Assembly (NCBI GenBank): GCA_038867895.1
Contig: JAWBXL010000008.1
Span: 43-64,042 of the forward strand
DNA from: Candidatus Bathyarchaeia archaeon
GTDB lineage: Archaea > Thermoproteota > Bathyarchaeia > Bathyarchaeales > DTEX01
DNA: 64,000 nt
Direction of reading: 5' to 3'
Under the pieces are notes generated by a model that was not told the DNA's origin, searched no databases, and saw nothing but the letters and a program-made list of their open reading frames with translations. This document shows positions 20,035-48,661 of the stretch, one piece after another; the first letter of the stretch is position 1, and each line of letters opens with the position of its first letter. The position numbers and the translations under genes are program-made.

Positions 20035-22389
20035 TTGGTTTCTGAAAAAAATATCCGAGTTAAGATTGATGAGCTGAGGAGTAGTGCAGGTCTTTTAAAG
20101 GGCGTTGAGATCTCCATTGGCAAAATAATTGGCGAGGAGTGGCTTGAGGAGACTGGGCCATCACAGTTCCCAAAGATACCCGACTTAAGGGAGTGGGACT
20201 TCAAGCTCCTGCAGCGCTATAAGCCCTTCTATATGCCATTCTGCGACCTCTGCTGCCTCTGCACATTCGGGAAATGCGATTTAACGGGGGATAAGCGCGG
20301 CGCATGTGGAATAAATATGTCAGCCCAGCAGTCACGCATAGTTCTCTTAGCATGCTGTATAGGCGCCTCTACACACGCGTCTCATGCTAGGCATCTGCTT
20401 GAGCACTTAATAGAGAAGTATGGACGCGACCACCCAATAGACGTCGGCGGCTTAAATGTTGAGGTGGAGGCGCCAATAACACGCTTAGTATGTGGTGTTA
20501 GACCCAGAACCCTCGGCGATCTAGAGGAAGTTCTAAACTACCTTGAGCAGGAAATAGTTAGGTTGTTAGCGGCCACACATACTGGCCAAGAGTCAAGCAA
20601 TATAGACTTCGAGTCTAAAGTATTTCACGCTGGGATGATAGACCATGTCGCGCTTGAGGTGGCCGATATAGCACAGATCTCAGCGCTCGGTTTTCCGAAG
20701 GCGGATCCAGAAGCGCCCCTGGTTGACATAGGTTTGGGTGTCGTTGACTCGACGAAGCCAGTCATAATGGTTGTGGGCCACAATGTTCCACCAGCAGCAG
20801 CCATAGTAGACTACTTGGTTGAGAATGGATTATATGGTGGCATTGAGGTTGTAGGCTTATGCTGTACAGCACATGATCTTACACGATATAACCCTAAGGC
20901 GAAGATTATTGGGCCAATATCATGGCAGCTTAGGTTTATTAGGAGCGGTGTAGCCGACGTCATAATTGTTGATGAGCAGTGCATTAGGACCGATACGCTC
21001 CTCGAGGCCCAGAAGGTTAAGGCTCCAGTTATAGCGACAAGCGATGTGAACTGCGCTGGGCTGCCAGATAGGACAAAAGATAGCGTTGAAAAGATTGTTG
21101 AGGACTTGGTTCTAAATGGGCAGCCGGGCGCATTGATCCTAGATCCGGAGAAGGCTGCTGAGGTCGCTGTTAAGACAGCTCTCTTAATCGCGTCTAAGAG
21201 GATGAAGCTTAAGGCTCTCCCAGATGTAAGCGACATAATTGAGGGCGCAAAGAAATGCCGTAAATGTGATGACTGTAGAAGAGCCTGTCCAAACGATTTG
21301 CCGGTGAGAGATGCCCTTGCGAAGGCGTTGGAGGGCAACCTAAATGCTCTTGCAGATCTCTATGAGGCATGCATTGGTTGTGCCAGGTGCGAGAGCGCAT
21401 GCCCAGTAGATCTTCCACTCCACAGCTTCATAGTTAAGGCTGCTGAGAAGAGGATAAAAGAGGAGAAGTATAAGGTGCGCGCGGGTAGGGGTGCGATACA
21501 GGATGTTGAGATTAGACAAGTGGGCAGCCCAATAGTTCTGGGCGAGATACCTGGCGTTGTGGCCTTCGTCGGATGCGCTAATTATCCTAATGGTGGAACC
21601 GAGGTTGCCGAGATGGCAGTTGAGTTCGCTAAGAGGCGCTATATTATCGTGGCGAGCGGCTGCGCAGCCATGTCCATAGGAATGTATAGGGACGAGGAGG
21701 GCAAAACACCATACGAGGCCTTCTCAGGAGCCTTTGATGCCGGAGGAATAGTTAATGTTGGCTCATGCGTCTCAAACTCACATATTGCCGGAGCAGCAAT
21801 AAAGATAGCCAACATATTTGCTAAGCGTAAGCTCCGCGCCAATTATGAGGAGATAGCAGATTATATACTTAATAGGGTCGGCGCCGTCGGCGTAGCCTGG
21901 GGCGCCATGTCGCAGAAGGCTGCTTCCATAGCCAGCGGCTTCTGGAGGCTCGGCGTCCCAGTTATTGTTGGGCCCCATGGGCTTAAGTATAGGCGTATGC
22001 TCTTAGGCAGGAAGGATAAGCCTGAGGATTGGTACGTCTATGATGCTAGGACTGGAGAGAAAGTTTATGTTGGCCCAGCTCCGGAACACCTGTTCTATGC
22101 CGCTGAGAGTAAGGAGGAAGCTATGGTTATGATAGCGAAGCTATGCATGAGACCAAACGACACTACTAAGGGTAGAGCGATAAAGCTTTCAAATTATATT
22201 GATCTCCATAAGCGCTTCTTTGGAACAATGCCGGATGACGTACACCTCTTCGTCCGCACATTGGCCGATGTTCCGCTGACGATGCGCGAGGAGGTCATAA
22301 AGGTTCTTGAGGAAAAGGGCTGGAAAGAGAATGTTATACCAGATCCAACGCTCCTACCGAGACTAGTGAGGAAAAAGGCTGGTGAGTGA
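20035..22389 (+). CDS. cdhA: acetyl-CoA decarbonylase/synthase complex subunit alpha (CODH catalytic subunit)
   Basis: N-terminal Cys-rich motif ([16 protein letters not shown]...RGACGI) and an internal two-cluster ferredoxin insert ([24 protein letters not shown]) typical of archaeal CdhA. 784 aa. Confidence 0.95.
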
Positions 22390-22939
22390 TATGGCCGCGA
22401 GAGCCGAGTCCTGGCAGACAGCTGAGATACCAGGCCCAAAGAAGGCCATGACTATAACTACTCCACAAATAGTTACAGCGTTAGTTAAGCGTTCAAAGAA
22501 CCCGGTTCTCATTGTTGGCGCAATGGCCCCAAAGATAAGGCTTAGTGGTGGCGATTTAATAGACTATGCTATCCGGATCGCTGAGGCGGCCGGAATGCCA
22601 ATCGTGTCCTCGCCGGGCATTTTTAAGGAGTTTATTGATAGGGGCTTTAAGAGGGTCTCCAACATGCCAGCTGTTGATATAGCAAATAGGCTTACAGACC
22701 CTAAATGGGCTGGGCTTGAGGGTAGGGGGCAGCACGACCTAGCCATCTTTATGGGCTTCAGGTACTACGTTTGCTGGCTAATCCTATCAGGCCTAAAGCA
22801 CTACTCCCAAAACCTCAAGACAATATCTCTAGAAATGTATTATCAGCCGCATGCATTATGGTCATTTCCAAACATCTCAAAAGAGGAGTGGGAGAAGAAC
22901 CTTGACGCCATTATTAAAAGTTTAAGAGAGGGAAAATAG
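22382..22939 (+). CDS. cdhB: acetyl-CoA decarbonylase/synthase complex subunit epsilon
   Basis: A protein of about 180 aa immediately after and overlapping the cdhA stop, with the size and position expected of CdhB. The start may instead be ATG 22391. Confidence 0.85.
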
Positions 22940-22974
22940 TCTTTTAATAGAAAGGTTGAAGGATGTGAGATAAT

Positions 22975-24384
22975 ATGTCAATGTTTGCTGATATTCCGGT
23001 TGGCGTCGGCGAGGTGTATTCTGGCGAGAGGATAAGGTGGCAGGACACTCAAGTGGAATTTGGTGGGTTAAGGGTTCAATATAAATTTGAGCTCGTTAAA
23101 GTTCGTAAAATGGATGAAGTTGAGGATGAAAAGATAACCATAATTGGTCCGGACATAAAGGATCTTGAGCCCCAGAAGTCTTATCCACTTGGAATATTTA
23201 TTGAGGTTGCAGGAAGACAGATTGAGGAGGAGCTTGAGGGAGTTATAGAGCGGAGAATACATGAGTACACGAACTACATTGAGGGCATGATGCACCTAAA
23301 CCAGAGATACGATATATGGATAAGACTCGGCAAAAGATCCTTTGAGAAGGGCTTAAACTCATTCCACATTGTCGGAAAAGTTTATCAAAGATTATTTAAG
23401 AGCGAGCTCCCAATAATCGAGAAGATACAAATAACCTTCATAACCGATCCAGAAAAAGTCAAGGAAATGTATGATTACGCGCTCAAGGAGTATGAGAAGA
23501 GGGATGCTAGGGCCAGGGGCCTAAAGGATGAGGAGGTAGACGCATTCTATGGGTGCACGCTATGTCAGTCCTTTGCTCCAACGCACGTCTGCGTAATAAC
23601 CCCACAGAGATACTCTAACTGCGGCGCAATAAGCTGGTTTGATGCAAGAGCTTCGGCAAGAATTGATCCTAAAGGGCCAGTATTTAGGATTGAGAAAGGC
23701 GAGTGCATTGATTCGATAAAAGGCGAGTATACTGGAGTAAACGATGTTGTTAAAATGAAATCTGGCGGAGAAATACAGCGCGTCTGGCTATATGCCGCCT
23801 TTGGACACCCGCACACCTCTTGCGGATGCTTTGAGGGGATAGCCTTCTATATCCCAGAGGTTGACGGCTTCGGAATAGTCCATAGGGGCTTCACCGAGAA
23901 CACCCCTATAGGCATATCATTCTCGAAGCTGGCAGATTCTACTGCTGGTGGTAGGCAGATCGATGGTTTCCATGGAATATCAATCGAGTATATGCGTTCA
24001 CCAAAGTTCCTACAGGCTGATGGCGGCTGGGAGAGGGTTGTCTGGATTCCCTCAACCGTTTTAGAGAAGGTTAAGGATTTCGTTCCAAAGCACCTTGTGG
24101 ATAAAATAGCGACCGAGAAAGACGCAAAGACTGTGGAGGAGCTTAAGAGCTTCCTTGTAGCCAAGGGCCACCCGATAGTTAAGAGGTGGGAGGAGAAGGC
24201 TAAGGTGGAGGCTGCGGCCAAACCTGTTGAGGAGAAGGCTGCCCTGGCTGTTGCCGCTCCAGAGACTGTTGCGGAGATCGCGGCTCCAGTAAGTGTTGGA
24301 GCCATTGGAGGGTTCAAAATAATACTCAAGAATGCTAAGATTAGAGCGGAGAAAGTTAAGATAATTAGGGCGAAGGAGAAGTGA
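22975..24384 (+). CDS. cdhC: acetyl-CoA decarbonylase/synthase complex subunit beta (acetyl-CoA synthase, A-cluster)
   Basis: A-cluster ligand motifs CTLCQSFAPTHVCVITPQRYSNCG and HTSCGCFE (Cys-Gly-Cys). Confidence 0.95.
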   Translation: MSMFADIPVGVGEVYSGERIRWQDTQVEFGGLRVQYKFELVKVRKMDEVEDEKITIIGPDIKDLEPQKSYPLGIFIEVAGRQIEEELEGVIERRIHEYTNYIEGMMHLNQRYDIWIRLGKRSFEKGLNSFHIVGKVYQRLFKSELPIIEKIQITFITDPEKVKEMYDYALKEYEKRDARARGLKDEEVDAFYGCTLCQSFAPTHVCVITPQRYSNCGAISWFDARASARIDPKGPVFRIEKGECIDSIKGEYTGVNDVVKMKSGGEIQRVWLYAAFGHPHTSCGCFEGIAFYIPEVDGFGIVHRGFTENTPIGISFSKLADSTAGGRQIDGFHGISIEYMRSPKFLQADGGWERVVWIPSTVLEKVKDFVPKHLVDKIATEKDAKTVEELKSFLVAKGHPIVKRWEEKAKVEAAAKPVEEKAALAVAAPETVAEIAAPVSVGAIGGFKIILKNAKIRAEKVKIIRAKEK

Positions 24385-24390
24385 AGGGAA

Positions 24391-25623
24391 ATGGCTAGTA
24401 AAGAGAAGAGGGATGCTGAGGAAGGAGCCCTTATAAAGCTCGGCCCAAAGCTCCTAGATCTTCTGAGACAGTTTGGTGAGATTGAGTTAGAGAATGTTGA
24501 GATCGAGGCTGAGGAGCTGGAGATATGGATACCAGCAGTTACAGCTGTCGCTCCGCCACCCGTGGCCCCGCCAAAGATGGTCCCGGCGAAGCCAGTAGAA
24601 ATATTAAGGGCGGAGTTTAAGCCTCCAATCCAAACTTATTCTGGAAAGATAACCGAGGTTAAGCTCGGGGCGACAAGAGGTGAGGGCGGCACTAGAGAAA
24701 AAGTTATAAAGGTTGGCGGGGAAGCTACCCCCACATTCTATCTTTTTGAGGAGGTTCCTCTAAACCCGCCAGTAATATCGGCCGACATATTTGACATGGA
24801 GGTTCCGCTTCCAAAGGCTATAAAGATGCATGTCCAGGAGGTTATCGGTGACCCAGCTGCGTGGGCTAAGCTCGCCGTAGATAAATTTGGCGCGGATCTA
24901 ATCACAGTCCACTTGGTTAGCACAGATCCTCTTAGAAAGGATGCCCCGCCGAGCGATGCCGCGAAGATAATTGAGAGGATTCTACAGGCGGTTAAGGTTC
25001 CAATAATTGTTGGAGGCTGCGGCGACCCAAAGAAAGATACGGAAGTCTTTAAGAGGGTCGCTGAGGTGGCGCATGGGGAGCGTGTCATGCTAAGCTCCGT
25101 AACCCTAGACATGGCTGAGGCAGGTCTATTAGAAGAGGTTGCTAAGGCCGCTAGGGAGCATGGCCACGTTGTGCTGGCATTTACGGCCATGGACTTAAAC
25201 CAGGCTAAAGAGCTCAACAGAAAACTCTACGATTATCTGCCAAGGGAGAGCATAATCATGGATTTAACCACGGCAGCCCTGGGATACGGACTAGAGTACT
25301 CGTTCACGGTGCATGAGAGGGCTAGACTCGCAGCCCTAGCTGGTGACCAAGAACTTCAGCACCCAACATCCTCAGGAACAACAAATGCCTGGGCCGCTAG
25401 AGAGGCTTGGCTGAAGCTCGGCCCGGAGTGGGAGCCTAGGGAGCTGAGGGGACCACTATGGGAGACAGTTACGGCAATAACCCTCCTCTTGGCTGGCGTA
25501 GATATCTTCATGATGATGCATCCGGCGGCGATACGTACTGTTAAGGAGACTATCAGTAACCTCTATAAGCGTGGCAGAGCTAAGCCTGAGGGCGTGGCTG
25601 ACTGGATTTCCATTAAAATATAG
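24391..25623 (+). CDS. cdhD: acetyl-CoA decarbonylase/synthase complex subunit delta (corrinoid/FeS protein small subunit)
   Basis: Position after cdhC, a Pro/Ala-rich linker and a TIM-barrel-like C-terminal region, as in CdhD/AcsD. Confidence 0.88.
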   Translation: MASKEKRDAEEGALIKLGPKLLDLLRQFGEIELENVEIEAEELEIWIPAVTAVAPPPVAPPKMVPAKPVEILRAEFKPPIQTYSGKITEVKLGATRGEGGTREKVIKVGGEATPTFYLFEEVPLNPPVISADIFDMEVPLPKAIKMHVQEVIGDPAAWAKLAVDKFGADLITVHLVSTDPLRKDAPPSDAAKIIERILQAVKVPIIVGGCGDPKKDTEVFKRVAEVAHGERVMLSSVTLDMAEAGLLEEVAKAAREHGHVVLAFTAMDLNQAKELNRKLYDYLPRESIIMDLTTAALGYGLEYSFTVHERARLAALAGDQELQHPTSSGTTNAWAAREAWLKLGPEWEPRELRGPLWETVTAITLLLAGVDIFMMMHPAAIRTVKETISNLYKRGRAKPEGVADWISIKI

Positions 25624-25640
25624 TTTGGAGGTGGGGGTAC

Positions 25641-27077
25641 TTGCCCACAGGTGAAGTAAAGAAGGGTGTGAGAGAGTTAAGTCCGTTAGACGCCTATATG
25701 CTCCTGCCGAGAACGAATTGTGGGAAGTGCGGTGAGAGCAATTGTATGGCATTCGCAACGAAGCTCGTTAATAGGGAGGTTACGCTGGAGTTATGTAAGC
25801 CGCTTATAGAGGAGGAGAAGTATAAAGCCCAGTATTCTAAGCTGAAAGAGCTTCTCGCTCCGCCGATTAAAGAGGTTGTTATTGGTGTTGGCGAAACCGC
25901 TGTTAAAGTTGGCGGTAAGCTCGTAATGTATAGGCATGAGCTCACGTACACGAATCCACCGCCCATAGCGATAGATGTGATGGATGAGATGCCTGAAGAC
26001 GAACTGCTTAAGCGTATAGAAAAGATTAATAGTCTTGCATATACTTATATTGGCAAGACAATTAAGCTCGATATGGTGGCAGTTAGGTCAACGTCAAATG
26101 ACCCCGCGAAGTTTAAGTCAGCCGTTCAGAAGGTTATGTCTGCAACAAAGCTTCCATTAATATTATGTACATTTAACCCGGATGTTATGAAGGCTGCCCT
26201 TGAGGTTGCATATGATCGGAGACCGTTAATATATGCCGCTACTGAGCGCAATTGGAGGCAGATGGCTGATTTAGCATTAATGTATAATTGTCCATTAGCG
26301 GTCTTCGCCCCAAACGATATAGCCCTACTAAAGTCGCTTACAAATACTCTCATAGAATATGGCATTGAGGATCTCCTCCTCGATCCGGGGACATTCCCAG
26401 AGGACGGTATTGCGGACACAATCACAAACTTTACAATGATTAGGAGGAGCGCATGTAAGTTTGGCGATAACCTTTTAGGTTTCCCGCTTATCGGTGTACC
26501 CATGACTGTATGGACCTTAAAAGATGTTCCGAAAGATGTTCTACAGTGGATGGAAGCATGCTTAGCGGGAATGCTGATTGTTAGATACGCTGATCTGCTT
26601 ATATTACATAGTCTTGAAGGATGGTCCCTTCTACCAACCCTAATCTTGAGGGCTAACATATACACTGATCCAAGGAAGCCGGTGGCCGTTGAGCCTGGAC
26701 TGAAGGTACTTGGCAGCCCAGATGAAAACTCACCAGTCCTAATAACATCAAACTATGCATTAACGTTCTTTACGGTTCAGTCTGATATAGAATCTGCCGG
26801 GATAAGCTGCTACCTCATAGTTGTTGATAGCGAAGGATACGCCGTTGAAAGTGCTGTTGCAGGGAGAAAAATGACAGCACAGACAATTGCAGATGCGCTT
26901 AAATCCTCAGGCATAGAAGAAAAAGTTAAGCACAAATACCTTATAATTCCTGGGCTAGCGGCTAGACTAAGTGGCGAGATAGAGGAGCTAGCAGGCTGGA
27001 AAGTCCTTGTTGGACCAAGAGATTCATCTGGCATACAGGCATTCTTAAAGGAGAATTGGCCCCCAAAAACTCCATGA
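25641..27077 (+). CDS. cdhE: acetyl-CoA decarbonylase/synthase complex subunit gamma (corrinoid/FeS protein large subunit)
   Basis: N-terminal [4Fe-4S] motif LPRTNCGKCGESNCMAFA followed by TIM-barrel and corrinoid-binding regions, as in CdhE/AcsC. Confidence 0.9.
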   Translation: MPTGEVKKGVRELSPLDAYMLLPRTNCGKCGESNCMAFATKLVNREVTLELCKPLIEEEKYKAQYSKLKELLAPPIKEVVIGVGETAVKVGGKLVMYRHELTYTNPPPIAIDVMDEMPEDELLKRIEKINSLAYTYIGKTIKLDMVAVRSTSNDPAKFKSAVQKVMSATKLPLILCTFNPDVMKAALEVAYDRRPLIYAATERNWRQMADLALMYNCPLAVFAPNDIALLKSLTNTLIEYGIEDLLLDPGTFPEDGIADTITNFTMIRRSACKFGDNLLGFPLIGVPMTVWTLKDVPKDVLQWMEACLAGMLIVRYADLLILHSLEGWSLLPTLILRANIYTDPRKPVAVEPGLKVLGSPDENSPVLITSNYALTFFTVQSDIESAGISCYLIVVDSEGYAVESAVAGRKMTAQTIADALKSSGIEEKVKHKYLIIPGLAARLSGEIEELAGWKVLVGPRDSSGIQAFLKENWPPKTP

Positions 27078-27121
27078 TTTTTTTCTCTTAGTCTTCTAAT
27101 TTTTAGTTAAGGGGATCTAGA

Positions 27122-27883
27122 TTGAAGACTCTTGTCTCGATGGGCAGGGGTGGAACCGGGAAAACAAGTTTTGTAGCCCTAACCACAAAATATTTTATAG
27201 AGAAGAAAGTATCTCCAATGCTCCTAATAGACGCAGATCCGGACCAGAGTCTAGCGGACGTTTTGGGAGTGGATTTCGAGGGGGAGGGTAAAAAGACTAT
27301 TTCTGAGCTTCTTGTCGAGACCTTTATTGAGGGCGGGGGCACGCTTGTCGGGGTCCCTCCATCAGAGAGGATGGAGAGTAGAATTTGGGAGGAAGGTCTC
27401 TACGAAGGGGAATATTTTGACTTGATCGTTATAGGGCCAAAGTGGGTTGAGGGCTGCTACTGCCTCCCAAATGAAGCCCTGAGGGCGGCTCTAGGGAACC
27501 TAATAAAGAATTACAGGTATATTATTATTGATACTCCGGCCGGTCTAGAGCACCTTAATAGGCGGATAACCACGAGGGTTAATGATATTTTCGATTTAAT
27601 AGATCCATCATTGAAATCCTTTGAGCATGTGGCCAGAGCATACAGGATAGCAAAGGAGGTTAACATAAAATTTGATAACTTTTATGTTATTGGGGGTTTC
27701 AGGTTTCCGGAAAAGCTTGGAAATAAAGTTGAGAGTAGACTAGGCTTAAGGTTTCTTGGGAAAATAGCCTTTGATGAAAATGTTGAGGATTTTGTCCTAT
27801 CTGGGAGATCTCTCCTTGAAATCCCGGAGGATTCGCCGGCATACCGTTCAGTTAAGGAAATATTGGCCAAAGCTGGATATTAG
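27122..27883 (+). CDS. CooC/AcsF-family Ni-insertion ATPase, divergent paralog 1
   Basis: MinD/ParA-like P-loop in a deviant form, GRGGTGKT (signature Lys replaced by Arg). CxC metal motif EGCYC and switch region IIIDTPAGLEH. Confidence 0.75.
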   Translation: MKTLVSMGRGGTGKTSFVALTTKYFIEKKVSPMLLIDADPDQSLADVLGVDFEGEGKKTISELLVETFIEGGGTLVGVPPSERMESRIWEEGLYEGEYFDLIVIGPKWVEGCYCLPNEALRAALGNLIKNYRYIIIDTPAGLEHLNRRITTRVNDIFDLIDPSLKSFEHVARAYRIAKEVNIKFDNFYVIGGFRFPEKLGNKVESRLGLRFLGKIAFDENVEDFVLSGRSLLEIPEDSPAYRSVKEILAKAGY

Positions 27884-27917
27884 GTAGAAGATAAATAAAA
27901 GGATTGAGAGCGCGGAA

Positions 27918-28343
27918 ATGAGTGAGCCTAAGAGTATAGATATTTTCCAGTTGCTTTTAGAGAGTTCAAGTAAAAAGGCGCGTAGATCAGAGATCCTATC
28001 TTCCCTTGGAATAAAAGAGTATTTCATTGATGGGGATATAGAAATAGACAAGAAGACCTGTAGGGGGGTGGACTGCCAGCTTTGCATCAAAGTCTGCCCA
28101 ACAAACGCCCTATACTGGAGCTACGGCCAAGTAAACATAACCAAGGAGCTATGTATACACTGCACGGCCTGCGTCCTTATCTGCATGGTTGACAACTGTA
28201 TTAAGGTTACTAGAAGGAGATCCAATGACAGGGTTGAGACTTTCAGCAACCCTAAGCAAGTGTTTAGGCTTCTGCAATCAATTGGCTCTGAGAAGCGTCT
28301 TGATATAGTGAACCGAGTTTTCCAGCTTAGAAGATCCATGTGA
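27918..28343 (+). CDS. 2x[4Fe-4S] ferredoxin-domain protein with N-terminal HTH-like extension
   Basis: Cys motifs CRGVDCQLCIKVCP and CIHCTACVLIC. The N-terminal ~40 aa (IDIFQLLLESSSKKARRSEILSSLGI) resemble a winged-helix recognition unit. Confidence 0.7.
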   Translation: MSEPKSIDIFQLLLESSSKKARRSEILSSLGIKEYFIDGDIEIDKKTCRGVDCQLCIKVCPTNALYWSYGQVNITKELCIHCTACVLICMVDNCIKVTRRRSNDRVETFSNPKQVFRLLQSIGSEKRLDIVNRVFQLRRSM

Positions 28344-28352
28344 GGGGTCTTA

Positions 28353-29144
28353 TTGAAGATAGTTGTTGCTGGTAAAGGTGGTGTTGGAAAAACTCTTGTC
28401 GCCGGAACCTTAGCTCGAATCTACGCTCGTATGGGCTTCAATGTCCTGGCAGTAGATGCTGATCCAGCCATGAACCTTGCTTACACTCTGGGAATACCTC
28501 AGGACGTATCGTCAAAGATAGTTCCAATAGCCGAGAACATCCCCCTAATAGAGGAGAGAACTGGAGCCAAGCCTGGATCCGCATTCGGAATACTCTTTAG
28601 TCTGACACCGAGGGTGGATGACATAGCCGAGAGGTATGGTGTAGTTGGGCCGGATGGTGTTAGGCTACTTGTTATGGGCACAATAAAGTCTGGTGGATCC
28701 GGGTGCGCATGCCCAGCCAACTCGCTTCTGAGCGCATTAATTAGGCATATAACCTTGAGAAGAGGCGATATAGTCATCATGGACGCTGAGGCTGGTTTAG
28801 AGCATCTTGGCAGGGCCACAGCCAAGGGTTTTAACATGATGATATGTATTGTGGAGCCAAGCGCCCCGTCAATAGAGACGGCCATAAAAATCAGGAAGTT
28901 AGCTAGCGAGATAAATATCAGAGAGGTTATCTTTGTCGGAAACAAGATCTCCGATTCTGAAGAGGAAAAATATATTAGAGGAGAGCTAGGTAAATCCTCT
29001 CTAAGCCTATTCCATACAATCCCTTTTGACCAAAATATTATTATGGCTGGGAGGGCCCGCGCCGCGCCAATAGATTATTCACCGTCGTCGCCAGCAATAT
29101 TAGCCATAAAGGATCTCGCTGAGAATCTCATAACTAAAATATAA
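28353..29144 (+). CDS. cooC: CooC/AcsF-family Ni-insertion ATPase, paralog 2
   Basis: GKGGVGKT deviant Walker A, CxC motif GSGCACP and DAEAGLEH switch. Confidence 0.85.
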   Translation: MKIVVAGKGGVGKTLVAGTLARIYARMGFNVLAVDADPAMNLAYTLGIPQDVSSKIVPIAENIPLIEERTGAKPGSAFGILFSLTPRVDDIAERYGVVGPDGVRLLVMGTIKSGGSGCACPANSLLSALIRHITLRRGDIVIMDAEAGLEHLGRATAKGFNMMICIVEPSAPSIETAIKIRKLASEINIREVIFVGNKISDSEEEKYIRGELGKSSLSLFHTIPFDQNIIMAGRARAAPIDYSPSSPAILAIKDLAENLITKI

Positions 29145-29239: not shown

Positions 29240-31909
29240 TTGGGCATAGAGGGATTAGACAAAATATTTAATCCCAAGAGAATCGCCGTTATCGGCGCAA
29301 GTAATAGAGAGGATTCTGTGGGATATAAAATATTTAATAACCTTATTGGTTTTAAGGGCTTCATTTATCCAGTTAACCCTTTTAGCCAGAGCATACAGGG
29401 GGTTACTGCCTATCCGAGCGTCAAAAAGATTCCATGGCGCATAGATTTAGCGGTGATTGCTACACCAGCCCATACTGTCCCAGAGATTGTGGAGGAGTGC
29501 GGTGAGGCTGGGATAACCGGGGTTATAATAGTTTCATCAGGCTTCAGGGAGACTGATCTAAGGGGAAAAGCCTTTGAAGAGGAGATTTTGAAGATAAAAT
29601 CTAGGTTCGGCTTGAGGATAATAGGGCCGAACTGTCTGGGGATTATACGCCCGAGCATAAAGATGAACGCGACATTCGCTAATAAGGTGGTCAGGCCGGG
29701 TAACATGGCTTTTATATCTCAGAGCGGCGCTATCTGCGCATCTGTATTAGATTGGGCTGAAGTAGCCAATGTTGGATTCAGCGCGGTTGTATCGCTGGGC
29801 AATACGATAGATGTGGACTTCGCTGATCTCATAGACTACTTTGGAATGGATCCAGAAACTAGAAGCATAATACTCTTCATTGAATTCTTAAGTGATCCTG
29901 GAAAGTTTATGAGCGCTGCGAGAAGATTTGCTGCGACAAAGCCGATAATAGCAATTAAGGCTGGTAGAACAAGCGAGGGTATAAGGGCGGCAGTATCGCA
30001 TACTGGTGCAATTGTGAGTGATGATGCACTTTATGACGCGCTTTTCTCAAGGGCTGGTGTAGTCCGTGTTGAAACCATCTCGGATCTATTCTCCTGCTCA
30101 GAGATCCTAGCAACCCAGCCATTACCTAAAAGCCCAAACTTAGTGATAATAACTAATGCTGGGGGCGCCGGGGTTATGGCCGCTGACGCCCTAATCTTAA
30201 GAGGAGGGGATCTAGCAAGACTGAGCGAAAAAACGGTTGAAGAGTTAGAGAGGGTTCTACCATACTATTGGAGTAGATCCAATCCAATAGATATATGTGA
30301 AGATGCGACGGCTGAAAGATTTAGAAAGGCTGCTGAAATATGCCTGAAAGATCCGGGCGCCGGGGGCTTCCTGGTGCTCTATACCCCAATTGGTGAGGCA
30401 GATCCCACGGAGACTGCTAAGGCTATAATCGAGGTTTTTAAGGGATCTGGGAAGCCGGTTCTCACATGCTGGCTTGGTGAAAAGGAGGTTCGTGAAGCTA
30501 GGGAAATATTTAGAAAAAATAGGATTCCAACATATCCAACTCCAGAGGAAGCCGTCGCAGCCTTCATGCACATGTACCAGTATGCCAGAAACATCGAGAT
30601 ACTCTACGAGGTTCCCGAGGAGATAAAATTGAGCCCACCGAGCGATAAAATGCGCCTAAAGAATATAATTAAGCGCGCCGTAGATGAGGGAAGATTTACA
30701 CTCACAGAGTTTGAATCAAAGGAGTTCCTCAAAGAGTATGGCATACAGGTTTCCGAGACATATGTTGCGAAAAACCCGGCAGAGGCTGCGGAAATTGCCT
30801 CCAAGATAGGCTTTCCAGTGGCTATGAAGGTTCTCTCACCAGATATTACACATAAGATGGATGTCGGCGGCGTCATCCTAAACATTTATAGTGAAGCACA
30901 GGTGAAGAACTGCTTCCTGCAGATAATAGGGAATGTTAAATCTCAATATCCAAACGCCAAAATTTATGGCGTTACTGTGCAGCCAATGCATCCTAGAGAC
31001 TATGAAGTTATTATTGGGTCGAAAAGAGATCCGGTTTTCGGATCATTCATAATTTTTGGGAGTGGTGGAGTTAGCGTTGATCTCTTTAGGGATATTGCCA
31101 TAGGCTTCCCACCATTAAATCAGACCCTGGCAAGAAGAATGATTGAGAGGACGAAAGTCTATAAAGCTTTTTCTGGAGGATTTAAAGGCTTATCTTTGGC
31201 TAACCTCAGATCAATCGAGGAGGCCCTTGTAAGGTTCTCGCAGCTAGTAATAGATTTTCCAGAAATAGATGAGGTGGATATTAACCCGCTTGCTGTCTCC
31301 TCTAATGGCATTATAGCCTTAGATGCCCGGATAATAGTTGATGTAGAGAAGGTGAGGAGTGAGCCTAAACCATATGAGCATATAATCATAAGACCTTACC
31401 CAACCAAGTATATATCTGAGCGCACACTGCGTGATGAAAGCAAAGTTACGCTTAGACCAGCTAGACCAGAAGATGAACCACTACTCATAGAATTATTCAG
31501 AGCCTTCTCGGCAGAGACCATGAGACTAAGATTTTTCCGGGTGATGAAGGAGATAGATCATTATGTGACAGCCAGATACTGTAATATTGATTATAGCCGT
31601 GAAATAACAATTGTTGCTGAAACAGAAATAAATGGAAAAAAGCGTCTGATAGGTATGGCAAATCTTATCATCCAACCGGACGGAAACAACAGCGAGATAT
31701 CAGTTGTAGTGGGGGATCCGTGGCAGAATAAAGGTTTAGGATCAATAATGATTGACCACCTTATAGAAGTTGGGAGAGACATGGGTCAAAAGAAACTTTT
31801 CGGAGAGTTTCTTGCAGAGAACAAAAAGGTTTTTCACATTTTACAGAAGAAGGGTTTTGAGATAAGGAGGATTGATAAGGAAACATGTATCGCCACGCTT
31901 AACCTCTAA
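29240..31909 (+). CDS. Pat-like bifunctional protein: ADP-forming acyl-CoA synthetase (fused alpha+beta) with C-terminal GNAT acetyltransferase
   Basis: 889 aa. CoA-binding N-terminus (IAVIGASNRE), phosphohistidine loop SHTGA and ATP-grasp region. The C-terminal GNAT carries LRPARPEDE...IDYSREI...WQNKGLG. Confidence 0.85.
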   Translation: MGIEGLDKIFNPKRIAVIGASNREDSVGYKIFNNLIGFKGFIYPVNPFSQSIQGVTAYPSVKKIPWRIDLAVIATPAHTVPEIVEECGEAGITGVIIVSSGFRETDLRGKAFEEEILKIKSRFGLRIIGPNCLGIIRPSIKMNATFANKVVRPGNMAFISQSGAICASVLDWAEVANVGFSAVVSLGNTIDVDFADLIDYFGMDPETRSIILFIEFLSDPGKFMSAARRFAATKPIIAIKAGRTSEGIRAAVSHTGAIVSDDALYDALFSRAGVVRVETISDLFSCSEILATQPLPKSPNLVIITNAGGAGVMAADALILRGGDLARLSEKTVEELERVLPYYWSRSNPIDICEDATAERFRKAAEICLKDPGAGGFLVLYTPIGEADPTETAKAIIEVFKGSGKPVLTCWLGEKEVREAREIFRKNRIPTYPTPEEAVAAFMHMYQYARNIEILYEVPEEIKLSPPSDKMRLKNIIKRAVDEGRFTLTEFESKEFLKEYGIQVSETYVAKNPAEAAEIASKIGFPVAMKVLSPDITHKMDVGGVILNIYSEAQVKNCFLQIIGNVKSQYPNAKIYGVTVQPMHPRDYEVIIGSKRDPVFGSFIIFGSGGVSVDLFRDIAIGFPPLNQTLARRMIERTKVYKAFSGGFKGLSLANLRSIEEALVRFSQLVIDFPEIDEVDINPLAVSSNGIIALDARIIVDVEKVRSEPKPYEHIIIRPYPTKYISERTLRDESKVTLRPARPEDEPLLIELFRAFSAETMRLRFFRVMKEIDHYVTARYCNIDYSREITIVAETEINGKKRLIGMANLIIQPDGNNSEISVVVGDPWQNKGLGSIMIDHLIEVGRDMGQKKLFGEFLAENKKVFHILQKKGFEIRRIDKETCIATLNL

Positions 31910-32681
31910 TTATTGTTGGGATAATTTTCTCTTCAACTATCTTTTTGACGTCTAATAGAGCATCACCAGATTTTAATAGTTTCCTTCTGAGGCATGAAAC
32001 ATAGAGCTCCCTATCAAATCTCACCAGACCATCTATGTTTAAGCCCACGCCAGCAGTCTCCTCAATAATAAGATCTTTTACATCATCCGTGACTTTATTA
32101 GCTATGACCCAAAATATCTTCCCTAAATTCTTGGCTATCTTCTTTAGTGTTAATGCCAGTTCTATGGATTCGGCCGTGGGATCTATGACCACAAGTATTC
32201 CATCTGAGACTTCCTCAATTCTTCTGCCAATATGCTCTACGCCAGCATCAGTATCAATCAATACAACCTCATTTTTCTCTAGACTTAGGTTTCCAAGCAG
32301 AATCCTCGTTAATATATTGAATGGGCATGCGCACCCCTCACCGTACTCCCTAACTTTACCTATCACTATTAATCTCACTCCCTCTCTTGAGGTTGCTATA
32401 TATTCGCTGGGGAGTAAGCTCAATTTTATGCCTTCCCTAGCCGTGGATAAAGCCCTAATGATATCCGGCTCCATCTTCTCGAAATCTTCCTCCTCCCTCT
32501 TCCCACCGACATATTCGACCAGAGGCTTTGGCGGGTTAACCCCAAGAAAGACCGGTAAAAGAGAATTTGATTCGTCTGAATCAACTATATATACCTTAAA
32601 TTTTTCTAGGAGAGACCTGGCAATTAGAATTGATAGTACTGTTTTACCAGACCCACCTTTACCACAAACCATAATCTTCAT
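31899..32681 (-). CDS. cooC: CooC/AcsF-family Ni-insertion ATPase, paralog 3
   Basis: GKGGSGKT, CxC motif GEGCACP and DTDAGVEH. Converges on the Pat-like gene and overlaps it by 11 nt. Confidence 0.85.
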   Translation of the reverse strand: MKIMVCGKGGSGKTVLSILIARSLLEKFKVYIVDSDESNSLLPVFLGVNPPKPLVEYVGGKREEEDFEKMEPDIIRALSTAREGIKLSLLPSEYIATSREGVRLIVIGKVREYGEGCACPFNILTRILLGNLSLEKNEVVLIDTDAGVEHIGRRIEEVSDGILVVIDPTAESIELALTLKKIAKNLGKIFWVIANKVTDDVKDLIIEETAGVGLNIDGLVRFDRELYVSCLRRKLLKSGDALLDVKKIVEEKIIPTIIRG

Positions 32682-39452: not shown

Positions 39453-39528
39453 CTTTCGCGGTCCACCATATTTATGCTACATTAATTTTTAAATAATGTT
39501 TGGTAGCATTTTAGATCGGGTGGTATTT

Positions 39529-40068
39529 ATGCAGGTTAGGGTTGGCGAGACCCTAATAGAGCTTGTTAAGGGTGATATAACCGAGCTTGGTGTTGACTGT
39601 ATAGTTAATGCTGCAAACAGCATGCTTAAGATGGGTGGGGGTGTTGCTGGGGCGATAAGAAGGAAGGGTGGAGAGAAGATACAGGAGGAGTGTGATAGAA
39701 TAGTTGCTGAGAGGGGCCCCATACCGGCCGGCGGGGCAGCTATAACGAGCGGCGGAAACCTTAAGGCTAAATATGTTATACACGCGGTAGGCCCAGTTTA
39801 TGGAGAGGGCGATGAGGAGAGGAAGCTTAGGAACGCGGTGATAAACAGCCTAAAGCTTGCGGAGCAGCATGGAATAACGAGCATAGCCTTCCCGGCGATA
39901 TCGACAGGAGTCTTCGGAATGCCAAAGAAATTGTGTGCCGAAACAATGCTTCCAGCAGTAATATCATATGCCAAAAGCGGAACCAGTATAAAAAGGATAG
40001 CTTTCTGCCTCTACGATAATGAAACATTTAATGTATTCAAGGAGGCTCTCAAAAATATTAAAATTTAA
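39529..40068 (+). CDS. macro domain protein (ADP-ribose / O-acetyl-ADP-ribose binding hydrolase)
   Basis: GDITELGVDCIVNAANSMLKMGGGVAGAI and SIAFPAISTGVFG motifs. The internal ATG is preceded by GGGTGG. Confidence 0.85.
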   Translation: MQVRVGETLIELVKGDITELGVDCIVNAANSMLKMGGGVAGAIRRKGGEKIQEECDRIVAERGPIPAGGAAITSGGNLKAKYVIHAVGPVYGEGDEERKLRNAVINSLKLAEQHGITSIAFPAISTGVFGMPKKLCAETMLPAVISYAKSGTSIKRIAFCLYDNETFNVFKEALKNIKI

Positions 40069-40606: not shown

Positions 40607-40813
40607 TTGTCCAGAAAACCTTGCCCAAATGTGGAGATAAACTTGAAGGATTGTCCATGCACATATCCATGCGATATTAAGGGGATATGCTGCCAATGCC
40701 TACTTAATCATAGGTTGCATGGAGAGCTGCCAGCATGCTACTTTCCGCCGGAGGTTGAGCGGACATACGATAGATCAATAAGGAGATTTATACAGGTCCA
40801 TAAGAGCAGGTAA
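40607..40813 (+). CDS. small Cys-rich protein (DUF6485-like pattern)
   Basis: Pattern CPN...CPCTYPCDIKGICCQCLLNHRLHGELPACYF. GGAGGTG lies 6 nt upstream of TTG 40607. The family assignment is from memory only. Confidence 0.5.
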   Translation: MSRKPCPNVEINLKDCPCTYPCDIKGICCQCLLNHRLHGELPACYFPPEVERTYDRSIRRFIQVHKSR

Positions 40814-40841
40814 AGCATAAGACCCCCAGGATGGAGATATT

Positions 40842-41507: not shown

Positions 41508-41524
41508 ATTCTTAGTTTTTTATG

Positions 41525-43309: not shown

Positions 43310-43422
43310 TCTTAATCACGCTCACAAATAATAATCAAATCATCTCTCCGTTTAATCTTTCCATTCTTAGCAAATTAAGATCTTAAAAAGAATATATAAA
43401 TGAATCTCTTTTTCGATGAAAG

Positions 43423-44502
43423 TTAAAGTTTCTCGCCGATAATTTTCTCTAGATTCACATACTTCTTAACTAGGTTTATGGCGGCGTTTATTCTCCTAAC
43501 ATCTTTGGGCTTTATTCTTCCAATCACTCTTTGTATGTATTGGAGGGTTGTATAAGTGTCGTATGGAACAAGTAGTAGTGGGATTTTAAGATGGTCTGCT
43601 TTTGGAAAGACTTTAACGCTTGGATAAAGATTTCCAGTTAATATTATTGCTGATACTCCCATCTCAAGAGCCGTTAAAATTATGTCTGTCCGGTCGCCGC
43701 CCGTTATCACAACTTCATTAAGAGCTCTACGAAAGTATTTTGCCGCGCTTTCAGGCGTCATGGCTCCAACAAGAATTTCCTCAACAACATTATCCAGCCC
43801 ATCTTTTCCTGCTAGAATCCTCCCGCCGATAAACTCGCATATCTCCCTGACTGTTGGAGCCTTTAATTCTCTGTCCTCCGGGATCACCCCTAGAACATTA
43901 ATATTCTGCTTTTCAATGAAGGGTTTGATCATACCTCTAAATCGCTCAATCCTGTCTTCCGGAACCCTGTTAAATATTACACCTAAGAGATTCGCCCTCC
44001 ATCTTGCGCATAGATCTTGAGACTGAAGCACGTTATCAATGGCAAAATCATTTTCCGCCATCTCAACCAATATTATATCTGCGCCTAGCTCCCTTGCAAT
44101 TCTTGGAGCTGAGCACCCTATAAAGGAGCCAGCCATGAGATTATGGGGGCTCTCAAGCAACACGACATCAGAGTTCTCTGAGATCTTTCTATAAGCACTT
44201 TTTATTTTCTCCATAAATAATTCAAGGTTATCCTCAACAAAATCCTCAAGAAATTCATCACCTTTAAGAAGAATTGGGCATATAATATCCTCAGCGTAAC
44301 CCAGCTTTAATATTGATTTCATTATTTCAACGTCTTCGTCATGTAGTTCTTTTCCAGGGGTGATTGATGAGCTAATTCCTATAGGTTTAAAGTATCCTAC
44401 CTTTAACCCCCTCTCCATGAATGTTAATGCTAAGGCTATGGTTATGGCGCTTTTACCAGAAAGCTCCTCGGTGGAGACTATATAAATTGCTTTTCTAGCC
44501 AA
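43423..44502 (-). CDS. Pta N-terminal-like regulatory protein (BioD-like P-loop + DRTGG domain) lacking the phosphotransacetylase catalytic domain
   Basis: N-terminus IYIVSTEELSGKSAITIALAL...GYFKPIG, and a DRTGG-type segment VITGGDRTDIILTALEMGVSAIILTGN. It lies 35 nt downstream of the ACD gene on the same strand. Confidence 0.7.
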   Translation of the reverse strand: MARKAIYIVSTEELSGKSAITIALALTFMERGLKVGYFKPIGISSSITPGKELHDEDVEIMKSILKLGYAEDIICPILLKGDEFLEDFVEDNLELFMEKIKSAYRKISENSDVVLLESPHNLMAGSFIGCSAPRIARELGADIILVEMAENDFAIDNVLQSQDLCARWRANLLGVIFNRVPEDRIERFRGMIKPFIEKQNINVLGVIPEDRELKAPTVREICEFIGGRILAGKDGLDNVVEEILVGAMTPESAAKYFRRALNEVVITGGDRTDIILTALEMGVSAIILTGNLYPSVKVFPKADHLKIPLLLVPYDTYTTLQYIQRVIGRIKPKDVRRINAAINLVKKYVNLEKIIGEKL

Positions 44503-44536
44503 TCTCCATCCCCAATATTCTTAACTCTTAACATTT

Positions 44537-46636: not shown

Positions 46637-46777
46637 AGAGATCTTTCTATTTTTTCGCTTCTAATTATCTCTACGGCCTTATTAATAAATAGCGCGGTAT
46701 CATATAGGTGTGGACGCGTATATTTATAATATCCAGTAACATTTTTATCGGGGGTAATCCGCGGGGGGATCCATAAT

Positions 46778-48661
46778 ATGCTTAAGGAGGAGAGATTGCG
46801 CGATAGACCATACGACGATAAGAAGATGAGTTTGAAGGAGGCTCTAGACCGCATAAAACCTGGGGACCATATTTTTATAGGATCGGCTTGCGGTGAACCG
46901 CAATATTTAGTTAGGGGTTTAGTTGAGATGGCGGATCACTTAGCTAATAATGAGATACTTCATGTGCATACTCTTGGAGTGGCGCCATACACGAAGCCTA
47001 GGTATTCAGAGAGGTTCAGGATGAACGCATTTTTTGTTGGAATCAATACTCGTAGGGCAGTAGCTGAAGGTAGAGCTGATTATACACCAACCTTCTTATC
47101 TGACCTGCCACACTTAATAAGGAATGGAGCTATCCAAATCGATGTTGCGCTCATACAAGTTACGCCTCCGGATGAACATGGATTCTGTAGCCTGGGCGTT
47201 TCAGTGGATGTTACAAAGGTTGCCGCTGAGAGATCAAAGCTAGTTATCGCTCAGGTCAATAGGAAGATGCCGAGGGTTTTGGGCGATAGCTTCATACACG
47301 TGAAGGATATTGATATAATTGTTGAGCATGATGAGCCAATACTCGAGGCACCGTCCTCTGAACCAGACATAGTTTCAGAGCGTATCGCAAAGTATGTCTC
47401 TGACCTAGTTGAGAATGAGTCAACGCTACAGATAGGCATAGGTAGTATACCAGACGCGATCCTAAATTACCTGGTAGATAAAAGGGATCTTGGGATACAC
47501 ACCGAGCTTCTCACCGAAGGTGTTGTGAGCCTTGTTGAGGAGGGCGTGATAACATGCGCTAAAAAGACGATAAATAGAGGAAAGATAATCGCGTCATTTG
47601 CGATGGGAACCCGCAAATTATATGACTTCATAGATAATAATCCTATGGTTGAGTTTTACCCGTCAGACTATGTAAATAATCCATTCATAATTGCTCAGCA
47701 TGACAAGATGGTTGCGATAAATCAGGCGCTCGAAGTAGACTTAACTGGTCAGGTATGCTCCGATTCACTTGGCTATAAATTTTATAGTGGGTTGGGTGGG
47801 CAGGCTGATTTTATGAGGGGTGCAAGACTATCAAGGGGTGGAAAGGCGATAACAGTCTTACCTTCGACGGCGAAGGATGGAAGAATCTCGCGTATAAAGG
47901 ACTTTCTGACAAAGGGGGCAGGCGTCGTGTTAACTAGGGGTGATGTTGATTATGTTGTTACAGAGTATGGTGTAGCCTACCTTAGGGGTAAGACGATTAG
48001 GGAGAGGGCTCTAGCGTTAATAAGCATAGCTCATCCAAAGTTTAGGAATAGGCTTCTTGAATGGGCGAAAAAATATAATTACGTTCCAAAGGAGATTATG
48101 CCCTTCCCTGAAGTAGAGTATCCGGAGGAGCTAAAGCGGTATATCACATTGAAGGATGGGTCAAGAGTGCTGCTTAGGCCTATAAAGCCTTCTGATGCGA
48201 CCTTAAAGCAGCATCTCTTTTATGCCCTCTCAAAAGAGAGCGTTAAGAGAAGATTTCTGGGATCGTTAGATCTCATGCCCCTTAAACGAATATGGCCATA
48301 CGTTGTAATAGACTATGCTAATGAGATGAGCATTGTTGGCACGGTGATGGAGAATGATAATGAATTTATGGTAGCTATAGGAAGCTATTCACGTATACCC
48401 GGAACAGAAAAGGCAGAGGTTTCATTAATCGTGAGGGATGATTGGCAGAATAAGGGTTTGGGAACAGCCCTATTCAACTATCTAGCGGAGATAGCGAAAT
48501 CCCGTGGAATAAAGATTTTCACCGGATGGATTCTCGTGGAGAATGCTAAAATGATGCACATACTTAAGAAATCTGGGTATCCAATGAAATATAGAGTTGA
48601 CGGAAACCTATTTTATGTTGAGTTGGACCTCACAAAAACCCCAGTAAAGAAAAATGCTTGA
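46778..48661 (+). CDS. acetyl-CoA hydrolase/CoA-transferase (4-hydroxybutyrate CoA-transferase-like) fused to a C-terminal Pat-type GNAT
   Basis: The first ~430 aa show the CoA-transferase family I layout (GDHIFIGSACGEP..., HTELLTEG). The C-terminal ~180 aa are a GNAT with LRPIKPSD...IDYANEM...DDWQNKGLG. Confidence 0.85.
   Translation: MLKEERLRDRPYDDKKMSLKEALDRIKPGDHIFIGSACGEPQYLVRGLVEMADHLANNEILHVHTLGVAPYTKPRYSERFRMNAFFVGINTRRAVAEGRADYTPTFLSDLPHLIRNGAIQIDVALIQVTPPDEHGFCSLGVSVDVTKVAAERSKLVIAQVNRKMPRVLGDSFIHVKDIDIIVEHDEPILEAPSSEPDIVSERIAKYVSDLVENESTLQIGIGSIPDAILNYLVDKRDLGIHTELLTEGVVSLVEEGVITCAKKTINRGKIIASFAMGTRKLYDFIDNNPMVEFYPSDYVNNPFIIAQHDKMVAINQALEVDLTGQVCSDSLGYKFYSGLGGQADFMRGARLSRGGKAITVLPSTAKDGRISRIKDFLTKGAGVVLTRGDVDYVVTEYGVAYLRGKTIRERALALISIAHPKFRNRLLEWAKKYNYVPKEIMPFPEVEYPEELKRYITLKDGSRVLLRPIKPSDATLKQHLFYALSKESVKRRFLGSLDLMPLKRIWPYVVIDYANEMSIVGTVMENDNEFMVAIGSYSRIPGTEKAEVSLIVRDDWQNKGLGTALFNYLAEIAKSRGIKIFTGWILVENAKMMHILKKSGYPMKYRVDGNLFYVELDLTKTPVKKNA

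Follow-up and report, generated by a model that had tools for sequence, protein, structure and literature searches.

We analysed a 64,000-nucleotide stretch of contig JAWBXL010000008.1 from a Candidatus Bathyarchaeia archaeon, referred to below as the window, which encodes two fusion proteins that end in a GNAT domain of the protein acetyltransferase (Pat) type. In one of them, ACD-GNAT, the domain follows an ADP-forming acyl-CoA synthetase (ACD); in the other, CoAT-GNAT, it follows a family I CoA-transferase (CoAT). Our best explanation, which we hold with moderate confidence, is that both are Pat-family lysine acyltransferases whose N-terminal modules are still enzymes. They would link acyl-CoA status to acylation of the acetyl-CoA synthetase of AMP-forming type (Acs) and possibly of ACD, with ACD-GNAT doubling as an ACD that spends acetyl-CoA made by the acetyl-CoA decarbonylase/synthase (ACDS). 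Under this explanation we infer acyltransferase activity, allosteric coupling, targets, and the substrate specificities of the ACD and CoAT modules. Open reading frame (ORF) listing, Pfam and NCBIfam recovered all genes and domain architectures that a first-pass annotation of this DNA had named (Table 1).

Pairwise alignment indicated that the two GNAT modules are homologous (34% identity, E 4e-33), as the first-pass annotation had proposed, and all six motifs that it had listed as shared can be read in both translations. Its assignment of the domains to the Pat/YfiQ type also held. Both GNATs matched Streptomyces lividans PatA (4nxy/4u5y), Escherichia coli PatZ (9it0) and Mycobacterium tuberculosis Pat (4ava) in the PDB, and the entries named ‘Acetyltransferase Pat’ (4orf/4oll/4onu) were matched by the CoAT fusion only; the mycobacterial Pat model of NCBIfam was matched by the GNATs of the fusions. 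The domain in ACD-GNAT spans residues ~729–883 (31424–31888), with Glu819 (31694–31696) and Q829-x-x-G-x-G (Q829NKGLG), and that in CoAT-GNAT spans residues ~456–620 (48143–48637), with Glu547 (48416–48418) and Q557-x-x-G-x-G (Q557NKGLG). When mapped onto PatZ numbering, the Glu in ‘E(I/V)S’ corresponds to the catalytic E809, ‘WQNKGLG’ to the acetyl-CoA P-loop, ‘RF’ to R754/F756 of the substrate-gating motif and the Lys of ‘K(K/S)G’ to K860; the effects of PatZ mutations have been reported (PMC12184503). The equivalents of R754 and K860 are kept in both fusions, and the F756 equivalent is Phe in ACD-GNAT and Leu in CoAT-GNAT. Alignment to PatZ thus found the acetyl-CoA-binding and catalytic residues intact in both proteins. 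Glu819 and QxxGxG were present in 121 out of 122 ACD-GNAT homologs, and Glu547 and Q557-x-x-G-x-G in all 17 archaeal CoAT-GNAT homologs. Because these motifs map onto functional residues of PatZ, both GNATs seem competent for catalysis and of the Pat type in particular.

A neighbour-joining tree of 187 GNAT domains, which carries no support values and whose sampling was seeded by one query, placed all 28 ACD-linked GNATs, including those of PatZ and the window protein, in one clade that held no CoAT-linked GNATs. The two fusions appear to be old and independent, rather than a recent double graft of one GNAT. A GNAT-only search of the full library returned 3341 cluster representatives at E ≤ 1e-10; CoAT-GNAT-sized proteins made up 26 of the top 150, and further ones were truncated copies. 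We considered GNAT matches of 300–520 amino acids (aa) as new architectures and rejected them: most were N-terminally truncated CoAT-GNAT, plus one GAF-GNAT. Within the representative library, the same GNAT subfamily also contained P0358 (967 aa), in which a ferredoxin-like region precedes the CoA-transferase and GNAT, and P0294 (357 aa), a GAF-GNAT.

ACD-GNAT was co-linear with PatZ (9it0) over 874 residues (4–877; E 1e-159). Its ACD module (residues ~6–700; 29255–31339) has the full set of ACD features, namely CoA_binding, Succ_CoA_lig, Ligase_CoA_2 and ATP-grasp_5 domains, the alpha phospho-His and the beta-subunit His. The phospho-His, H254 (29999–30001), lies within SHTGA, and the aligned swinging loop reads AAVSHTGA in ACD-GNAT versus LLNTTA in PatZ. 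Motif regexes under-called conservation, and alignment-based counts were used for residue conservation: His254 was kept in all 122 aligned homologs (53–85% identity) and the beta-subunit His in 111 of them. Metagenomic relatives of ACD-GNAT also retain the His, with SHIGA variants occurring (SH(T/I)GA). Most of the 14 longest representatives (>680 aa, mostly ACD-GNAT-sized) had no HTGA in a regex check, so His retention is, as far as these sequences indicate, a lineage trait. The score against TIGR02717 was 532.7 bits, just below the cut-off of 567, and NCBI annotates the protein as a ‘bifunctional acetate--CoA ligase family protein/GNAT family N-acetyltransferase’.

The definition of bacterial Pat includes the loss of this catalytic His (PMC3195501), and PatZ has L245 in place of H254 of ACD1 (PMC12184503). 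ACD-GNAT shares with type I Pat the N-terminal ACD homology and the GNAT residues, but not the dead ACD-like domain. Judged by these features, it is an archaeal, His-intact version of type I Pat, and new as such. Its lineage, with ACD catalysis apparently kept, offers a plausible evolutionary intermediate for the origin of Pat.

The N-terminus of CoAT-GNAT, by contrast with type I Pat, is not ACD-like and consists of AcetylCoA_hydro and AcetylCoA_hyd_C (Pfam E-values of 1e-35 and 4e-68). This family I CoA-transferase module covers residues ~12–438 (46811–48091), with the catalytic Glu243 (47504–47506) and GLGGQ at residues 338–342. Residues 12–438 matched 4-hydroxybutyrate CoA-transferases in the PDB at E 1e-131, and the GNAT domain matched Pat GNATs at ~1e-14 to 1e-15. 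E238 of AbfT aligns to E243, and the features of a family I CoA-transferase, the mechanism of which is described in the RipA paper (PMC3180442), are all present. The module scored below curated equivalog cut-offs, including that of TIGR03948. Among 17 archaeal homologs, mean column identity was 82% over both domains, with Glu243, GGQ and the GNAT residues invariant. More than 120 clusters had at least 72% identity to CoAT-GNAT, mostly from Bathyarchaeia.

To describe its spread, we used GTDB species representatives and took the best-scoring 80 of 586 candidate loci, a set biased towards relatives of the query; all 80 loci cover both domains, and the other candidates may include GNAT-less transferases. 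The archaeal carriers belonged to Bathyarchaeia, Hadarchaeales, Brockarchaeota, Thorarchaeota and Methanomassiliicoccales. The bacterial carriers belonged to Planctomycetota/Phycisphaerae, Chloroflexi, WOR-3, Latescibacterota, Leptospiraceae, Bacillota, Chthonomonas and Syntrophobacteria, and two cultured strains, Desulfacinum infernum DSM 9756 and D. hydrothermale DSM 13146, carry the fusion. The idea of a specifically archaeal system did not survive these results, with CoAT-GNAT frequent in bacteria as well, Planctomycetota and Syntrophobacteria among them.

Conservation differed between the two halves of CoAT-GNAT. Across 26 diverse cluster representatives, E547 was present in 19 (with Asp in five more), Q557 in 24 and G560 in all 26; the transferase Glu was replaced in 11 of the 26 clusters, and GGQ was lost in about one-third to two-thirds, depending on the column. 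Because the GNAT motifs persist while the Glu and GGQ of the transferase are lost, much as PatZ lost its His, the pattern speaks for acyltransferase activity as the function conserved across the family, with the GNAT as its constant core and an N-terminal module that may freely decay to a binding domain. In five loci from unclassified bacteria (L072, L076, L077, L078 and L080), E243 was changed to Gln, GGQ to GDQ and the GNAT Glu to Met; in all of these except L080, the doubly substituted protein adjoins a 521-aa AMP-forming ligase ending in PRNPTGKI. The proteins of this subgroup may be pseudo-enzymes or serve as adaptors. The published Pat types I–V have ACD-like, cAMP, ACT or NADP+ modules or none, and include no CoA-transferase type (PMC12184503). 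Our literature search found no description of a CoA-transferase–GNAT fusion or of an archaeal ACD-GNAT. By its domains and distribution, CoAT-GNAT is a widespread, uncharacterised variant of the Pat principle.

We then compared gene neighbourhoods. For ACD-GNAT, 40 metagenomic loci were analysed. In the window, the gene starts 95 bp past the cdh-cooC cluster on the same strand, and cdh-cooC lay directly upstream of ACD-GNAT in nine loci with 65–82% identity (L081–L085, L093, L097, L106 and L109). The link was rearranged or partial in two more (L092 and L095), and cdh was absent around ACD-GNAT in more distant loci (L086–L091, L094, L096, L098, L099, L101, L105 and L119). The cdh linkage of ACD-GNAT is confined to one Bathyarchaeia subclade (at least 65% identity). 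Three loci at 61–64% identity (L086, L087 and L105) had genes of an NADH-linked NiFe-hydrogenase upstream instead of cdh, namely NuoE/NuoF/NuoG-like genes and those of the small and large hydrogenase subunits. At ~51% identity, the loci contained a divergent Acs with PKTRSGKI; an Acs with this motif adjoins the distant ACD-GNAT genes of L094, L098, L099, L101 and L119, and in L094 an Acs sits between two tandem ACD-GNAT paralogs.

For CoAT-GNAT, we combined tblastn with neighbour clustering on the 80 loci. Acetate or acetyl-CoA enzymes adjoined the fusion in at least 49 loci, archaeal and bacterial. A GNAT-less ACD was the neighbour in 41 loci, and the phospho-His motif SHTG[AS] was intact in all 41. 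The ACD of archaeal loci usually diverged from CoAT-GNAT but shared its strand in L027 and L049. Among bacteria, it lay on the same strand, with gaps of ~10–220 bp, in Planctomycetota, WOR-3, Latescibacterota and two metagenome-assembled genomes (MAGs) of unclassified bacteria, and was divergent in a Leptospiraceae locus (L051). An AMP-forming ligase was the neighbour in 11 loci, comprising six true Acs (ACAS_N and AMP-binding) and five 521-aa ligases, all 11 of which carry the Pat-site motif PxxxxGK (PKTRSGKI or PRNPTGKI). None of the 80 loci had cdh within 10 kb of CoAT-GNAT. Of the linkage that the first-pass annotation had named as a check, the part concerning acd holds for CoAT-GNAT, and the part concerning cdh fails beyond the ACD-GNAT subclade. 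Both fusion families recur beside Acs with PKTRSGKI, the canonical Pat substrate, and the neighbourhoods support a genomic tie of both families to makers and spenders of acetyl-CoA, namely ACD and Acs with the PKTRSGK site. Type I Pat modifies the PxxxxGK lysine of AMP-forming acyl-CoA synthetases, with a sigmoidal dependence on acetyl-CoA, and for the fusions the Acs next to their relatives gives indirect support to such a role.

The stand-alone ACD next to CoAT-GNAT in the window scored 597.5 bits against TIGR02717, above the cut-off of 567, and has the ACD domains and both His residues; its identity to the ACD module of ACD-GNAT is 41%. The gene 34 bp downstream of it encodes a protein limited to the N-terminal part of phosphotransacetylase (Pta-N-only). 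Its NCBIfam match to class II Pta covers only positions 3–368 of 708, and Pfam found no PTA_PTB catalytic domain in it, and on its domain content it is not a Pta enzyme. This gene adjoined the ACD in 28 of the 80 CoAT-GNAT loci, all archaeal. The 120 best homologs are all stand-alone proteins of 339–378 aa named ‘phosphotransacetylase family protein’, and none of them is a Rosetta-stone fusion to ACD or GNAT. DVU3031 of Desulfovibrio is a comparable orphan, described as having no known role (PMC4481167). By analogy with class II Pta, a regulatory role for the Pta-N-only protein is a reasonable guess. An alignment of 11 loci revealed no conserved operator in the intergenic region between ACD and CoAT-GNAT; the shared elements were AT-rich TATA-like boxes. 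In the Hadarchaeales MAG JZ-2_201705_bins_17, two contigs (L021 and L022) each carry the Pta-N-only gene and ACD divergent from CoAT-GNAT; either the module is duplicated or the bin contains more than one strain.

In the mechanism that we propose, the fusions would belong to two separate modules, not to one circuit. ACD-GNAT would most likely do two things: where the Wood-Ljungdahl route ends, interconvert acetyl-CoA with acetate and ATP, and, with acetyl-CoA bound in its ACD module, acetylate lysines of target proteins. In CoAT-GNAT, the family I CoA-transferase would replace the ACD-like domain and bind or turn over short-chain acyl-CoA. Together with the adjacent ACD, the transferase could convert acyl-CoA and acetate into acetyl-CoA, which would then yield acetate and ATP. 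Its GNAT would couple acyl-CoA status to lysine acylation of acetate and acetyl-CoA enzymes, the candidate targets being AMP-forming Acs at the PKTRSGK lysine and possibly the adjacent ACD.

Several points weigh against this proposal. ACD is not known as a target of acetylation. Domain scans found no sirtuin, HDAC or AMP-forming Acs encoded in the window. The 80 CoAT-GNAT loci, as the best-scoring of 586, favour relatives of the query, and the neighbours in Syntrophobacteria (FdhE-like, MinC/MinD and NT5C) gave no functional lead. ACD adjacency occurred only where E243 was intact (39/66 versus 0/8; Fisher p=0.0016, without phylogenetic correction), a pattern that plain metabolic coupling between the transferase and ACD would explain no less well than regulation would.

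The last observation bears on a purely metabolic alternative, which we consider unlikely. Here ACD-GNAT would be an acetogenic ACD, CoAT and ACD would conserve ATP from short-chain acyl-CoA through an acetate shuttle, and the GNAT would act only in cis, as self-regulation, or on a small molecule rather than regulate other proteins as Pat does. The invariant His254 of the ACD-GNAT homologs, the invariant Glu243 and GGQ of the archaeal CoAT-GNAT group, the intact His of all 41 neighbouring ACDs, the restriction of ACD adjacency to proteins with E243 and the same-strand position of ACD-GNAT directly behind the cdh operon would all be expected of working enzymes. However, the GNATs are specifically of the Pat type, down to the gating segment at their N-terminus, which in PatZ gives the pocket for protein substrates its shape (PMC12184503). 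Moreover, both families recur beside Acs with the canonical acetyl-lysine motif, and many members lack the CoAT catalytic residues yet keep the GNAT. We retain Pat-type acyltransferases with enzymatically live N-terminal modules as the preferred reading; the earlier notion of fusions beside acetyl-CoA machinery stands, but the modules keep catalytic residues and may be working enzymes rather than pure sensors.

A more far-reaching version of the preferred reading is tentative, and as a whole we think it improbable. In it, CoAT-GNAT would form a hitherto unrecognised cross-domain Pat-like class whose live CoAT senses short-chain acyl-CoA through the covalent Glu–CoA intermediate or makes the donor, the targets would include the adjacent ACD, and the His-intact ACD-GNAT would represent the bifunctional ancestral state of bacterial Pat. 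If this were true, ACD, the main ATP-yielding acetate enzyme of archaea, would be under lysine-acylation control, and bacterial Pat would have evolved from a bifunctional ACD-GNAT by losing ACD catalysis.

We also weighed self-charging acyltransferases, in which the N-terminal module would make the acyl-CoA donor in situ and pass it to the fused GNAT; this we regard as quite unlikely. The ACD would use acid, ATP and CoA, and the CoAT would use acid and acetyl-CoA, such that non-acetyl marks on the targets (propionyl, butyryl or 4-hydroxybutyryl) would signal the kind of organic acid at hand. In the window lineage, both active sites that would make the donor are intact, 4-hydroxybutyrate or butyrate is the substrate of the nearest characterised relatives of both modules, and fusion is a classic route to channelling. 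Nevertheless, nothing points to a tunnel or to a specific donor, the homologous site in PatZ is allosteric rather than a donor source (PMC12184503), and the loss of CoAT catalytic residues in many relatives shows that the family can do without donor synthesis. The two-input acylation circuit controlling ACDS/Cdh of the Wood-Ljungdahl pathway, put forward in the first-pass annotation, is very unlikely: it can draw on the closeness of ACD-GNAT to cdh-cooC and its retention in nine loci, but cdh is missing around more distant ACD-GNAT genes and around CoAT-GNAT, the recurrent neighbours are ACD and Acs rather than Cdh, and the adjacency is equally explained by an ACD consuming ACDS-made acetyl-CoA.

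Comparison with known systems places both fusions close to Pat. PatZ (YfiQ) and Salmonella enterica Pat (9it0 and 9isq) have the same subdomain order as ACD-GNAT (CoA-binding, ligase-CoA, ATP-grasp and GNAT); PatZ and ACD-GNAT share the catalytic Glu, the P-loop, K860 and R754/F756, and their GNATs group in the tree. They differ in that the bacterial proteins lack the phospho-His and use the ACD-like domain as a pure acetyl-CoA sensor (PMC3195501, PMC12184503), whereas ACD-GNAT keeps the His, and in that its host is archaeal and its neighbour cdh or Acs, whereas the context of PatZ is enterobacterial. CoAT-GNAT resembles type II/III Pat (S. lividans PatA, the cAMP-binding Rv0998, Micromonospora PatB with ACT and Myxococcus ActC with NADP+) in joining a Pat GNAT to a metabolite-binding module, and the GNAT of PatA was the best structural sequence match to that of CoAT-GNAT (58 bits). 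However, none of the type II/III regulatory domains is a CoA-transferase (PMC12184503); they are small ligand-binding domains, whereas the CoAT module is a full enzyme fold with the catalytic Glu. The family I CoA-transferases AbfT, which acts on 4-hydroxybutyrate, and RipA, a butyryl-CoA transferase (3gk7, 3eh7, 9vag and 3qli), have the catalytic Glu (AbfT E238, RipA E249 class) and GxGGQ in common with CoAT-GNAT (PMC3180442), but they are stand-alone proteins of ~440 aa, to which CoAT-GNAT adds a 190-aa Pat-type GNAT.

Among archaeal proteins, the ACDs of Ca. Korarchaeum (ACD1, 4xyl), Pyrococcus horikoshii (2csu) and Nitrosopumilus (the 4-hydroxybutyryl-CoA synthetase 8wzu) share their domains, swinging-loop His and beta His with both window ACDs. 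ACD-GNAT differs from them by its C-terminal GNAT, and the stand-alone ACD by its pairing with a Pta-N-only gene. Sulfolobus SsPat, which acts on Alba, and Haloferax HvPat2, which acts on glycerol kinase, are lysine acetyltransferases of the GNAT family, and SsPat (3f8k) gave a weak match to the GNATs of both fusions. SsPat and HvPat2 are single-domain proteins, as the studied archaeal lysine acetyltransferases are described to be (PMC12607858), whereas both window fusions are multidomain. Our literature search found no characterised archaeal multidomain Pat, in agreement with the first-pass annotation.

Both fusions extend a known kind of system rather than found a new one. In bacteria, control of acetyl-CoA synthetase by Pat-type acetylation is the textbook example of metabolism regulated through lysine acetylation. 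CoAT-GNAT is likely a missing class in the scheme of Pat types I–V: it is strongly conserved and widespread, with links to ACD or Acs genes in Bathyarchaeia, Hadarchaeales, Brockarchaeota, Thorarchaeota, Methanomassiliicoccales, Planctomycetota and others. This raises the hypotheses that acylation may regulate ACD and that acetogenic or fermentative archaea may tune their acetate switch through acyl-CoA-sensing acyltransferases.

Table 1. Genes and intergenic region of the cdh and CoAT-GNAT portions of the window (window coordinates)
Feature	Coordinates	Strand	Support and remarks
cdhA	20035–22389	+	Pfam Prismane, Fer4
cdhB	22382–22939	+	Pfam CO_dh
cdhC	22975–24384	+	Pfam CdhC, ACS_CODH_B_C
cdhD	24391–25623	+	Pfam CdhD; NCBIfam delta, 556 bits (cut-off 488)
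cdhE	25641–27077	+	Pfam CdhD, FeS; NCBIfam gamma, 621 bits (cut-off 306)
CbiA/MinD-family P-loop ATPase 1	27122–27883	+	Pfam CbiA/AAA_31/ParA
4Fe-4S ferredoxin	27918–28343	+	Pfam Fer4; between the two P-loop ATPases
CbiA/MinD-family P-loop ATPase 2	28353–29144	+	Pfam CbiA/AAA_31/ParA
ACD-GNAT fusion, 889 aa	29240–31909	+	Pfam CoA_binding_2, Succ_CoA_lig, Ligase_CoA_2, ATP-grasp_5, GNAT
Third CbiA/MinD-family ATPase	31899–32681	-	Pfam CbiA; convergent with ACD-GNAT
Pta-N-only protein	43423–44502	-	Pfam; AAA_26/BioD-like and DRTGG
Fused alpha-beta ACD without GNAT, 699 aa	44537–46636	-	Pfam
Divergent intergenic region between ACD and CoAT-GNAT, 141 bp	46637–46777
CoAT-GNAT fusion, 627 aa	46778–48661	+	Pfam AcetylCoA_hydro, AcetylCoA_hyd_C, GNAT

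The four elements that had been described as lying within about 29 kb are all present, although not as one cluster. Housekeeping genes (Elp3, GlyRS, PhoU-like, tRNA-splicing endonuclease, transglutaminase-like, Macro, MscL, PLD-like and aIF5B) separate the cdh genes and ACD-GNAT from the ACD/Pta-N-only pair and the divergently transcribed CoAT-GNAT, seventeen kilobases downstream. Because these genes fill the stretch between them, the 29-kb span is two units rather than a single cluster. In the first unit, Pfam and NCBIfam identified all five subunits (alpha, epsilon, beta, delta and gamma) of an archaeal ACDS/carbon monoxide dehydrogenase, encoded together at 20035–27077. Of the cdh maturation genes named in the first-pass annotation, the ATPases and ferredoxin are present and are syntenic with cdh in the same nine loci as above, but none of the ATPases at 27122–29144 matched a curated CooC model and their CooC likeness is only generic; we regard those at 27122–27883 and 28353–29144 as putative CooC-type Ni-insertion factors. 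The third ATPase adjoins ACD-GNAT also in L081–L085.

An Elp3 homolog (32995–34587, + strand; ELP3_N, radical SAM and GNAT) contributes a third GNAT to the region; it lies ~1 kb downstream of ACD-GNAT, with the CbiA-type ATPase gene between them, and is syntenic in L081–L085. Elp3 modifies tRNA and is not known as an acetyltransferase of proteins. A Macro-domain protein (39496–40068, + strand) resembles models for ADP-ribose binding and O-acetyl-ADP-ribose deacetylase, with scores below the cut-offs, and its gene is kept in synteny between the modules in L001–L003, L005, L028 and L081–L085. O-acetyl-ADP-ribose is a by-product of deacetylation by sirtuins, of which the window contains none. A 123-aa ORF (48654–49025, + strand) overlaps the end of CoAT-GNAT and is antisense to the gene for ribosomal protein L18; it is probably not a gene, because its apparent conservation elsewhere stems from L18 on the opposite strand.

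Genes flanking this region encode reverse gyrase, MCM, GINS, TBP and ribosomal proteins. A molybdopterin oxidoreductase (6344–8887, + strand) resembles the formate dehydrogenase alpha subunit, scored below equivalog cut-offs and could have a bearing on the Wood-Ljungdahl methyl branch. The reverse gyrase (12358–15936, + strand) combines helicase, Toprim, topoisomerase and reverse-gyrase zinc-finger domains. It indicates a (hyper)thermophilic host, in line with the nearest relatives, which are hot-spring Bathyarchaeia MAGs.

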